Virus record (IMG/VR): IMGVR_UViG_3300011855_000001
Span: 62,001 to 95,548 of that record
Direction: 5' to 3' (one strand)
Length of the DNA stretch: 33,548 bases
Origin: an uncultured virus (IMG/VR IMGVR_UViG_3300011855_000001)
Lineage: Duplodnaviria > Heunggongvirae > Uroviricota > Caudoviricetes
In this document: positions 27,952 to 29,903 of the stretch, piece by piece
How the letters are laid out: the number at the start of each line of letters is the position of its first letter
Position numbering within the stretch: position 1 is the first letter of the stretch
Program-made: the position numbers and the translations under genes
The notes under the pieces: model-generated
What the model was told of the DNA's origin: nothing
Databases searched by the model: none
The model's input: the letters and a program-made list of their open reading frames with translations, nothing else

Positions 27952-28290
27952 TTAGTTACAGCGAACGGTGCCAAACGAATCGCGTCGGCAGGTGCTGCCA
28001 TCGCTTCCCCGCGTCGTGCCGAAGCTGTCAGTGCGCCAGCTGTTTCCGTGGTTGTCACGGGTGGTGCCGAAGCTGTCCGTGCGGTACACGGAGCCATCGC
28101 TGCCGCGCGTGGTACCAAACGAATCGGTGCGCCAGCTATTGCCATGGTTATCGCGCGTTGTCCCGAAGGAGTCCGTGCGGTAGGTGGTGCCGTCATCACA
28201 GCGCGTGGTACCGAAGGAGTCAGATCGGCAGGTCAGCGCTGCGGCGTTAAAGCTGGCGGTGAGCGCCAGCAGGAGGATCAGTTTTTTCAT
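27952..28290 (-). CDS. Exported protein made of six 16-aa RxDSFGT repeats (112 aa)
   Basis: Signal peptide MKKLILLLALTASFNAAA; (Y/W/C)RxDSFGTTR..G repeats; true start 28290, not 28365. Confidence 0.85.
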   Translation of the reverse strand: MKKLILLLALTASFNAAALTCRSDSFGTTRCDDGTTYRTDSFGTTRDNHGNSWRTDSFGTTRGSDGSVYRTDSFGTTRDNHGNSWRTDSFGTTRGSDGSTCRRDSFGTVRCN

Positions 28291-28323
28291 AATTAACTCT
28301 CTTAATAAAAATTGGCACATTGC

Positions 28324-28713
28324 CCCATACCTTACCCGTCCGCACCGCACCCTACCCGACCCCACCCAACTTCACCCTGCCTCAACTTTACTTCGCTATG
28401 CGCCCAAATCAGACGCATAACGCTGTATTAGCCCTTGCCTTACCCAGCCTCACCGTACCCCACCGAACCATACCACTCGATGCCACAGATTTACTTCGCT
28501 ATACGCCCGAAGTCAGACGTATAACGCTGTATTAGCCCTTACCCATCCGGGCCGCACCTTGCCTTGCCCCAACATACCAAGCCCTAGCGAGCCTTAACTT
28601 TACTTCGCTTTACCCCCGCGAACAGAGGTAAAACGCTGTATTAGCCCTAGCCTCACCCCTCCATACCGTGCCGTGCCTGACCGAACCGGGCCTTACCTCG
28701 ACTTTATTTCGCT
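28324..28713 (-). ncRNA. Four-unit putative guide-RNA array of phased GGY-NN pentamer tracts with conserved hairpin linkers (VIPR-like, not a canonical CRISPR)
   Basis: Tracts 28648-28702 (11x5), 28539-28598 (12x5), 28435-28489 (11x5), 28327-28386 (12x5); 35 of 42 internal triplets are GGT/GGC on the minus strand; directly downstream of a RAMP-like operon. Confidence 0.88.
28387..28647 (-). repeat. Three copies of a 48-49 nt linker (28387-28434, 28490-28538, 28599-28647) plus a partial copy at 28703-28713
   Basis: Minus strand GGGCTAATACAGCGT-[10-bp hairpin]-GCGAAGTAAA; flanks invariant, stem covaries. Confidence 0.95.
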
Positions 28714-28729
28714 TTCAAATTTAATATAA

Positions 28730-29239
28730 TTACGAACCAAAGACTGCATCTCGAATGTCTTTAATTTTCTTTTTATTCCCGCCTTCATCCAGCTTCATCT
28801 TGGCGTCGGCTAACCTGTTTTTTTCATGGTTAGTCATGCTGTCATCACGCAGGTTATTGAGCCGCAGACGAGCCTTTTTATATCCACGCTTAATGGTCTT
28901 CTGCAATTCATCTACAGCAACACTAATGGCATCGGCAGCAGATATTTGCTGATAACCAATCCCGATAACCGCCCGAAATTGGATTTTATGCTTTTCAGCC
29001 ATATGACGGAAAAACTCAGTGCGCCTTTTAAGGAAGGTTACTTCCCATTGTTGGTGATCTTTTCTTTCACCCGACGAAGGGTAGTCAGGAATTTCAAGAG
29101 CACATTCAAACCAACTGGTCGGAGTTACATCGCCGTCTTTATGCTCATCAGCAATATATTTAGCAGCTGCTCTTTCTGCAAATCCAGACTGATTCCCATC
29201 TTCATCGAGAGAAACCTCGATATCGTCAATATCAATCAT
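28730..29239 (-). CDS. Accessory protein of the RAMP/array cassette (169 aa, function unknown)
   Basis: ATG at 29239 right after the RAMP-like stop (GAGGTGG RBS); same AT-rich codon usage; acidic N-terminus, basic helical C-terminus. Confidence 0.8.
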   Translation of the reverse strand: MIDIDDIEVSLDEDGNQSGFAERAAAKYIADEHKDGDVTPTSWFECALEIPDYPSSGERKDHQQWEVTFLKRRTEFFRHMAEKHKIQFRAVIGIGYQQISAADAISVAVDELQKTIKRGYKKARLRLNNLRDDSMTNHEKNRLADAKMKLDEGGNKKKIKDIRDAVFGS

Positions 29240-29240
29240 T

Positions 29241-29819
29241 TCATTCCACCTCGTCTGCGTAGACCACATCAAACCGCCCGAATTTCGGCCTGTAATCGCA
29301 AATTCCGATTTGAGTGCCAGCTTCGATGAGCGCTTTCTTAACATCATGTACGTCGATGTTTTTTTCATCGAACTGGATAATAAATTCCAGCGACCACTCA
29401 TTAAATCGCGGCCTGTAGCGCATAATTTTAGCCGCCCCGACCTTTACGCTTCTAGCGTCATAAAACTTTTTATCCCACAGGCCATCAATATCTTTAGGGC
29501 CATTGTAAATAAGTGGAATTTCAAGACCCACCACCTCAACGGAACGTTTAAAAAGCGTCCCTAACTTTGACAGCTTGGCAGCACCAATAAGCGATGCCTC
29601 GATGATAGTCGTTGGAATAATAACCACATTATCGCCGGAGAGATAAAGGGATGACCGCCACTCGCTTTTTGCTATTTCAATATGATCGTCATCGGTTTTT
29701 TTCCGTTTCGCTGTCAGCAGTTTATGCCGCTTTGTCAGCTCGTTAAGCGGATCTGCAAATACATCAGCGTGCATGAGAAGTGGGCGAGAACCTTCGATTT
29801 TGCATTTAATAAAGCTCAT
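29241..29819 (-). CDS. Stand-alone RAMP/Cas7-like RNA-binding protein (Vipr-like)
   Basis: N-terminal strand IEG.RPLLMH, IP...IEASL..AA helix, RPRF.EW...F.I strand and C-terminal Gly-rich loop AG..IGICDYRPKFGRFDV, the RAMP signature order; no other cas genes in the window. Confidence 0.8.
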   Translation of the reverse strand: MSFIKCKIEGSRPLLMHADVFADPLNELTKRHKLLTAKRKKTDDDHIEIAKSEWRSSLYLSGDNVVIIPTTIIEASLIGAAKLSKLGTLFKRSVEVVGLEIPLIYNGPKDIDGLWDKKFYDARSVKVGAAKIMRYRPRFNEWSLEFIIQFDEKNIDVHDVKKALIEAGTQIGICDYRPKFGRFDVVYADEVE

Positions 29820-29851
29820 ATCTCTTACCTTGCCTTGGTTTGTGAGTGGTA

Positions 29852-29880
29852 ATTATCTGTATAAATAAATTTGTGGTCAA
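29852..29880 (-). promoter_or_regulatory. Sigma70 promoter of the RAMP/array operon
   Basis: TTGACC-17 bp-GATAAT; AT-rich spacer without the CGTCA-N4-TGACG site. Confidence 0.7.
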
Positions 29881-29903
29881 GTCTTTTTTGATGCTGAATT
29901 AGC

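Follow-up and report, generated by a model that had tools for sequence, protein, structure and literature searches.

The stretch of DNA analysed here (the window, 33,548 nucleotides) sits within the complete 95,548-base record of an enterobacterial phage, which over a test stretch is 94% identical to Enterobacter phage phiT5282EW and 88% identical to Escherichia phage ECML-606-1. The minus strand of the window carries a cassette consisting of vipr, encoding a RAMP protein, a vap1-type accessory gene and an array of four guides (Table 1); in both of the phages just named, a single unrelated ORF takes the place of this cassette. The GC content of the cassette genes is 43-45%, compared with 56% for the window, and the ORF found in place of the cassette in two relatives (L188:1573-1983 and L189:1843-2253) has a weak match to PHROG 32956. 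The candidate promoter is a consensus match only, the scan having returned two sites against 2.3 expected in shuffled sequences. Directly downstream of the array is a 112-aa ORF (27952-28290, minus strand) with a signal-peptide-like start and approximately six D-S-F-G-T-T/V-R repeats; Pfam and PHROG searches with it gave no match, and it is also found in cassette-free relatives and Pantoea phages.

Comparison of the vipr product with PDB entry 36pp_D, 'SUSP1 Vipr', by phmmer gave an E value of 2.8e-41, at an identity of 41.7%, and PHROG 4652 is common to both genes; a Pfam search on vipr returned no family. The predicted model of the protein has a RAMP fold that matches Csm3 and Cmr RAMPs. Residues H17, K33, R39, K82, G87, R136, D175, Y176 and R177 align with functional residues of the SUSP1 protein, for which the set compared was H17, K33, R39, K82, R138, D177, W178 and R179, and K88 of SUSP1 Vipr is replaced by T88. 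The vap1-type gene, queried with four extra upstream codons, matched PHROG 5926, the family of the gene that follows vipr in SUSP1 (E 1.9e-16); the likeness is through this shared PHROG only, as BLAST gave no direct pairwise alignment to the SUSP1 gene. The locus has the type II VIPR layout of vipr, vap1 and four GGY/NN guides, the assignment to type II resting on vap1 and the arrangement of the array. The SUSP1 clade is defined by a pseudoknot tail and a Vipr identity above 90%, and the window, with its lower identity and different tail, lies outside it. The sequence-only reading had left the system unnamed; it is the published type II VIPR system of phage SUSP1, as set out in the available text of three preprints (10.64898/2026.04.26.720920, 10.64898/2026.04.26.720927, 10.64898/2026.10.15.759431), and the locus is ordinary for its family. 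As the system is already published, the value of the present analysis lies in mechanism rather than in the locus.

Guides of VIPR systems consist of 9-16 GGY/NN pentamers followed by a structured, conserved 3' tail (10.64898/2026.04.26.720920). The four tracts in the window have 10-12 units each, 8-9 of them canonical per tract, and the structured tail is supplied by a linker containing two elements, here termed P1 and P2. Three hairpins form the linkers between guides 1 and 2, 2 and 3, and 3 and 4; ahead of guide 1, the A/T-rich sequence that follows the vap1 stop codon (28698-28760, minus strand) holds only a short, weak rod remnant. When the array (28322-28697) is compared with that of the nearest relative, L004 (L004:3618-3998; Vipr 94% identical), guide 1 and linker 1 are unchanged, three guides differ and the third hairpin of the window stands second, which suggests a modular reshuffling of linkers and guides that spares the guide nearest the promoter. 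The linker also adjoins other guides in contigs from four of at least 20 listed sequencing runs, mostly from wastewater. Of 312 tracts in the relatives listed, 255 have AA, AT or AG as the last NN preceding the terminal unit, a bias that is probably structural and not target-specifying.

Table 1. Features of the VIPR cassette in the window; a slash between two positions marks a predicted cut, and roles of P1 and P2 are those proposed from sequence comparison.
Feature	Position	Strand	Remarks
Whole VIPR cassette	28291..29903	-	variable slot; two close phage relatives hold one unrelated 136-aa ORF there
Candidate sigma-70 promoter of the vipr-vap1-array transcript	29852..29880	-	10/12 consensus matches
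vipr	29241..29819	-	192-aa RAMP protein; phmmer match to PDB 36pp_D, PHROG 4652
vap1-type accessory gene	28730..29239	-	~169 aa; PHROG 5926
Leader of guide 1	28698..28712	-	resembles 3' flank of linkers; no full hairpin in front
Guide 1	28643..28697	-	10 pentamer units (9 GGY) and terminal GGG unit
P1 of linker 1	28635..28645	-	weak 3-bp stem starting at third base of terminal unit; proposed 3' cap, inferred from relatives
P2 hairpin 1	28607..28634	-	predicted RNase III cuts 28633/28632 and 28607/28606; 3/6 canonical positions, scored on the identical copy in L004
8-nt invariant leader and guide 2	28534..28606	-	12 units, 8 GGY
P1 of linker 2	28526..28536	-	weak 3-bp stem
P2 hairpin 2	28498..28525	-	predicted cuts 28524/28523 and 28498/28497; 4/6 canonical positions
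8-nt leader and guide 3	28430..28497	-	11 units, 9 GGY
P1 of linker 3	28422..28432	-	weak 3-bp stem
P2 hairpin 3	28395..28421	-	predicted cuts 28420/28419 and 28395/28394; 5/6 canonical positions
8-nt leader and guide 4	28322..28394	-	12 units, 9 GGY
Terminal P1	28307..28324	-	4 bp, different sequence, then U run; no P2 after last guide

A covarying hairpin in these linkers had been proposed from the letters of the sequence, and its stems, loops and flanks do lie on the minus strand within 28387-28647, an interval that runs exactly from linker 3 to linker 1. Folding of the minus-strand linkers gave energies of -20.1 to -20.6 kcal/mol (z -4.1 to -4.6), equalled by 0, 0 and 1 of 200 shuffles, compared with -8 to -10.1 kcal/mol (z -0.8 to -1.9) for the plus strand. 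As had been claimed, pairs 2, 4 and 6 are altered in both bases (UA>AU, AU>GC, CG>GC). The two U-G wobbles described as common to all copies pair on the minus strand and are invariant in the window, where a third invariant U·G is found near the stem base, but one of these three wobbles is lost from a variant in L004. At 12 pairs, with a C-G pair below them, the stem exceeds the length first proposed; G·A and A·A mismatches follow, and then a further UAC/GUA helix of three pairs. The variant in L004, the fourth of this hairpin, adds double changes, which brings them to 5 of 16 pairs over four copies. The element is a real structured RNA on the minus strand. No Rfam family scored above its gathering threshold (one chance match, E 2.2), the linker DNA had no match in E. 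coli genomes and plasmids, and a scan of viral contigs for the exact 16-base flank returned seven loci, of which six were unrelated chance matches and one a known relative. A possible pseudoknot joining the P1 loop to the 3' flank was set aside, as both pairings compete for neighbouring bases.

The composition of the linker becomes clearer in the relatives of this locus, which comprised 15 and 80 viral loci, 80 metagenome loci, the single locus returned by a scan of genome contigs with one protein, and three named phages; some contigs recur, and the two large scans represent the best 80 of 278 and the best 80 of 489 matches. Among the matches listed, 393 distinct repeat tracts were found, and their common linker has three parts. 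The first, P1, is a stem of at least 4 pairs that starts at the third base of the terminal GG-purine unit; it is present in 250 of the 314 listed tracts with such a unit (shuffled mean 58, maximum 78), with many compensatory variants. The second, P2, corresponds to the hairpin of the sequence-only reading, and its 5' arm is 13 nt long in 119 of 158 internal hairpins of the listed relatives. The third, P3, is a short hairpin immediately after P2 in 51 of 77 representative linkers. Pseudomonas phages LESphi2 and Medea1 and the environmental relatives share the GG, P1 and P2 linker with the window, in which, by contrast, P1 is a weak stem of 3 pairs, P2 is one pair shorter and the 8-nt leader replaces P3.

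Two further arrangements were seen among the relatives. P1 and P3 seem, by eye only, to covary in L043:1639-1700, L130:1636-1697 and L144:3103-3164, and these joint changes leave both a two-hairpin and a rod pairing possible. Where the array lies upstream of vipr, as in L005:2425-2500 and similar loci, the last guide is followed by P2, P3 and a ribosome binding site, an order in which the vipr mRNA would also, after a cut, start with a stem-loop. The loci of distant Vipr proteins (L174:3065-3434, L177, L155, L157, L176 and L184) have short A/U-rich or other linkers without P2, implying that a route through P2 is not universal and pointing to another processing route there.

The pattern of variation within P2 was compared with the requirements of E. 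coli RNase III. In the available text of Pertzev and Nicholson (PMC1540722), the enzyme's substrate is defined by six favoured pairs in an 11-bp helix; with a minimal substrate, one pair fewer entails a 50-fold loss and any change in the distal box costs over about 5-fold. The available part of a review describes in vivo sites as having no strong consensus (PMC8708148). From 306 tracts with room on both sides, 193 P1-anchored hairpins were picked blind to pair identity, the other 113 having no P1 or no stem or belonging to the window or L004; the 193, none of which come from the window or L004, represent 98 loci and were reduced to 77 representatives by removing copies more than 80% alike. When the cut is set two bases downstream of P1, these representatives match a mean of 3.18 of the six canonical positions, against 0.87, 0.71 and 1.13 for registers shifted by -2, -1 and +1, 1.1 for a strand-swapped control, and a mean of 1.22 (maximum 1.60 in 2000) when the order of pairs is shuffled. 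Fifty-five of the 77 were then aligned on sequence only, the set being limited to a span of 28-30 and excluding the named phages and one outlier. In this alignment the distal box carries U·G in 51 linkers and U-A in 54, position 2 of the proximal box is G-C or C-G in just one of 55 and position 4 is less strict (17/55); as many as 32 double changes occur at neighbouring and middle pairs. The relatives' stems are free to vary except where E. coli RNase III reads its substrate. These counts overstate independence, since related sequences share ancestry, and the register was chosen after the likeness to the R1.1 site of phage T7 had been noticed. An alternative register through the other apex wobble was rejected, as it puts G-C beside the cut and its wobble is lost in the L004 variant. 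A covariance model built from the 55 linkers, with the structure described here, ranks the three linkers of the window top in the window, with weak scores (17.7, 16.0 and 13.3 bits; E 0.008-0.12).

The same register was applied to two phages with published information on their RNAs. On T7 DNA it predicts 3' cuts at 890, 3138 and 5887, the first two of which we take to be those of R0.3 and R1. The third is the cut given for R1.1 in the accessible part of the review (5887; PMC8708148). Two of the T7 hairpins, those taken to be R0.3 and R1, have the same 10-bp geometry as P2 of the window; no RNase III annotation was found in the T7 sequence records. The model built from VIPR linkers only also picks up R1.1 of T7, along with four hairpins of SUSP1, at weak scores of 11-14 bits. 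In SUSP1, hairpins matching 5-6 of the six canonical positions stand before each of the four guides and after guide 1, apart from the pseudoknot, whose first helix, like P1, begins at base 3 of the terminal unit. Cuts in these hairpins would leave tails of 40, 41 and 41 nt, consistent with the ~40-nt tail of published SUSP1 guide RNAs, and RNAs of 105, 121 and 116 nt, somewhat above the ~100 nt published (10.64898/2026.04.26.720920).

The interpretation to which we attach a probability of roughly 0.7 is that P2 acts as a cis-encoded substrate of host RNase III separating the guides of a type II VIPR array, and that P1 acts as a separate cap. From the observed structure, strand, family membership, conservation pattern and separation of P1 from P2, we infer the following steps. 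The vipr and vap1 genes and the four guides would be transcribed together from the minus strand, each linker folding into a rod of ~20 bp equivalents. RNase III would then make two cuts offset by 2 nt, one following the invariant 5' flank (which ends CAGCGU) and one preceding the invariant 8-nt 3' flank, so releasing the variable top of the hairpin; the predicted cuts lie at the inner ends of the flanks that had been reported as invariant. The freed 3' end would refold into the short P1 stem at the pyrimidine position of the last repeat unit, ending the Vipr filament there. Mature guides of 78-87 nt (guide 2 at 28606-28524, 83 nt; guide 3 at 28497-28420, 78 nt) would load Vipr, which would silence the DNA of competing elements through the published one-base-skip code. 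Two cuts are somewhat favoured over a cut in the 3' arm only, which would leave P2 on guide RNAs of 103-109 nt. Comparison gives good support to the proposal that the hairpin is a processing signal cut by a host RNase, and allows the candidate enzyme to be narrowed down to RNase III, with cut sites predicted; the accompanying suggestion of capping or limiting filament length probably belongs to P1, which had been counted as part of the invariant flank.

This division of roles is suggested by hairpins that precede the first guide of an array. Among the listed relatives, an RNase III-like hairpin lies 25-65 nt upstream of 36 of 107 first guides, and in two of these cases the hairpin probably comes after a guide that escaped detection; the figure for control windows is 1 of 106. 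P1 is present in only 7 of 33 leader hairpins but in 169 of 177 hairpins after a guide, while the lower stem persists in both sets (28 of 33 and 145 of 177), each set having been selected on the distal U·G. The absence of P1 from most leader hairpins, with the lower stem kept, points to P1 as the guide end and P2 as the cut. The expectation that last guides lack P2 held only partly: downstream of vipr, P2 comes after 20 of 50 last guides and 37 of 65 internal ones, and upstream of vipr after 35 of 70 and 93 of 121 respectively (listed relatives). P1 in the window has a pairing probability of 0 in the uncut precursor and on its own is worth only -1.7 kcal/mol. The pyrimidine pocket of Vipr excludes purines, according to the available text on its cryo-EM structure (10.64898/2026.04.26.720927), such that a paired purine at this position would be a plausible filament stop. 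The rival that survives best, although we consider it unlikely, holds that P2 is only a retained 3' tail, blocking exonucleases or capping the filament as a counterpart of the SUSP1 pseudoknot, and that RNase E or another nuclease separates the guides in the flank. A conserved structured tail after the repeats has been described (10.64898/2026.04.26.720920), P2 does follow many last guides, and the flank is A-rich and single-stranded. However, P2 also precedes first guides, where there is no guide to cap, and is missing after the last guide of the window, which has P1 without it; SUSP1 has a pseudoknot in addition to a separate P2-like hairpin; and a cap leaves the fixed arm length and the distal U·G and U-A unexplained.

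Cas6-processed class 1 CRISPR systems have a hairpin between guides, an 8-nt 5' tag and a RAMP filament, and the window resembles them in its inter-guide hairpin, its 8 nt and its RAMP protein. It differs in its long, variable stem, its non-contiguous guide code and the lack of a match to Cas6e or Csy4 in searches of the phage genome, which for these two Cas6 families bears out the statement that no Cas6-like gene is present; a search for the RNase III family in the phage genome likewise gave no match. A CRISPR array processed by Cas6 was rejected on the grounds that the linker stems vary, the spacers are pentamer repeats and neither Cas6 family is matched. A related and rather improbable explanation is that Vipr or Vap1 processes the array itself, in the manner of Cas6 or Cas5d, at the 3' base of the hairpin, which would remain as a 3' handle while the following guide received an 8-nt 5' tag. 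Vipr has the RAMP fold, the predicted 3' cut at the base of P2 leaves exactly 8 invariant nucleotides in the window, and SUSP1 guides arise in E. coli carrying vipr alone on a plasmid (10.64898/2026.04.26.720920). Against this, the stem sequence is free to vary and, as with RNase III substrates, the constrained pairs are 9-10 bp away from the cut, the relatives show a P3 hairpin after the cut in 51 of 77 cases in place of an 8-nt tag, and the ~40-nt tails of SUSP1 also require a cut in the 5' arm.

The P2 copies of the window are predicted to be suboptimal as RNase III sites. They match 3, 4 and 5 of the six canonical positions, their distal position 1 is G-C, G-C and G·U and not U-A, and the helix between cut and loop is 10 bp, compared with mostly 11 in the relatives and a criterion of at least 11. 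Position 2 of the distal box is nevertheless U·G in all three copies and in the L004 variant, and positions 2 and 4 of the proximal box are both U-A in all window copies. It is conceivable, with a slightly lower probability than self-processing, that in this lineage P2 is bound but poorly cut, so that multi-guide RNAs persist and the hairpin merely spaces Vipr filaments. In favour of this reading, all four copies of the lineage have a 10-bp upper helix and a distal position 1 that departs from the canonical pair, and a proper hairpin is absent before guide 1. Set against these points, proximal positions 2 and 4 stay A-U or U-A in all four copies, the distal U·G is retained in four of four even where the other apex wobble is lost, and T7 hairpins of identical geometry exist. 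That the hairpins are DNA elements or terminators reflecting array recombination is scarcely credible: linkers and guides are indeed reshuffled across strains, but G·U pairs function on one strand only, no U run follows P2 and a terminator scan does not call it.

The RNase III substrate proposed here would share features with several known systems. The window and SUSP1 are alike in having vipr, vap1 and a GGY/NN array in a phage, in most of their RNA- and DNA-contact residues and in the long RNase III-like hairpins that flank the guides. Unlike SUSP1, the window has no pseudoknot tail, combines its proposed cap (P1) and proposed processing stem (P2) in a single 45-nt linker and carries all four guides downstream of the genes, and its Vipr is 42% identical. 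As far as the available text of PMC1540722 and PMC8708148 goes, T7 R1.1 is also a hairpin acting in cis, with a U·G nine pairs from the cut and an A-U proximal box in the same register; T7 sites, however, separate mRNAs and an internal loop limits cutting to one strand, whereas the stems of the window are fully paired at the predicted cut. Type II CRISPR RNAs, as described in the accessible part of PMC12045711, are matured by host RNase III, as predicted for the window, but their duplex needs a trans-encoded tracrRNA, whereas that of the window is encoded in cis in the linker.

Searches for guide targets under the one-base-skip rule covered viral contigs, the phage's own genome, VIPR loci and, for guide 1 only, E. 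coli K-12, and gave no match above chance. Exact scans of viral contigs, five in all, returned 5, 30, 66, 77 and 19 loci, with best totals of 18/22, 19/24, 19/22 and 19/24, which is about chance for a forced seed of 15-16 bases; allowing three mismatches, guide 1 matched in 0 of 5 records, and all guides against 734,572 bases of the relatives' loci did no better than shuffled guides.

Maturation by RNase III, the most likely role of the hairpin, is a testable addition to the known VIPR family. In their available text the three VIPR preprints report small guide RNAs without a maturation route for type II arrays, and neither RNase III nor another route is stated there, although figures, supplements or journal versions may show cut sites; literature searches pairing VIPR with RNase III found nothing. 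We regard it as an even chance that the type II VIPR arrays of Proteobacteria, that of SUSP1 included, generally use host RNase III on T7-like cis hairpins, without tracrRNA or Cas6, the linker having two states, a precursor rod and then a P1 filament stop. Should P2 prove to be an RNase III site, a host factor could be named for guide biogenesis, together with cut predictions at the level of the base that existing SUSP1 small-RNA data could check at once. It would also provide a design rule for multi-guide VIPR constructs, a distinction between processing stem and filament cap, and an example of an array matured by RNase III without tracrRNA.
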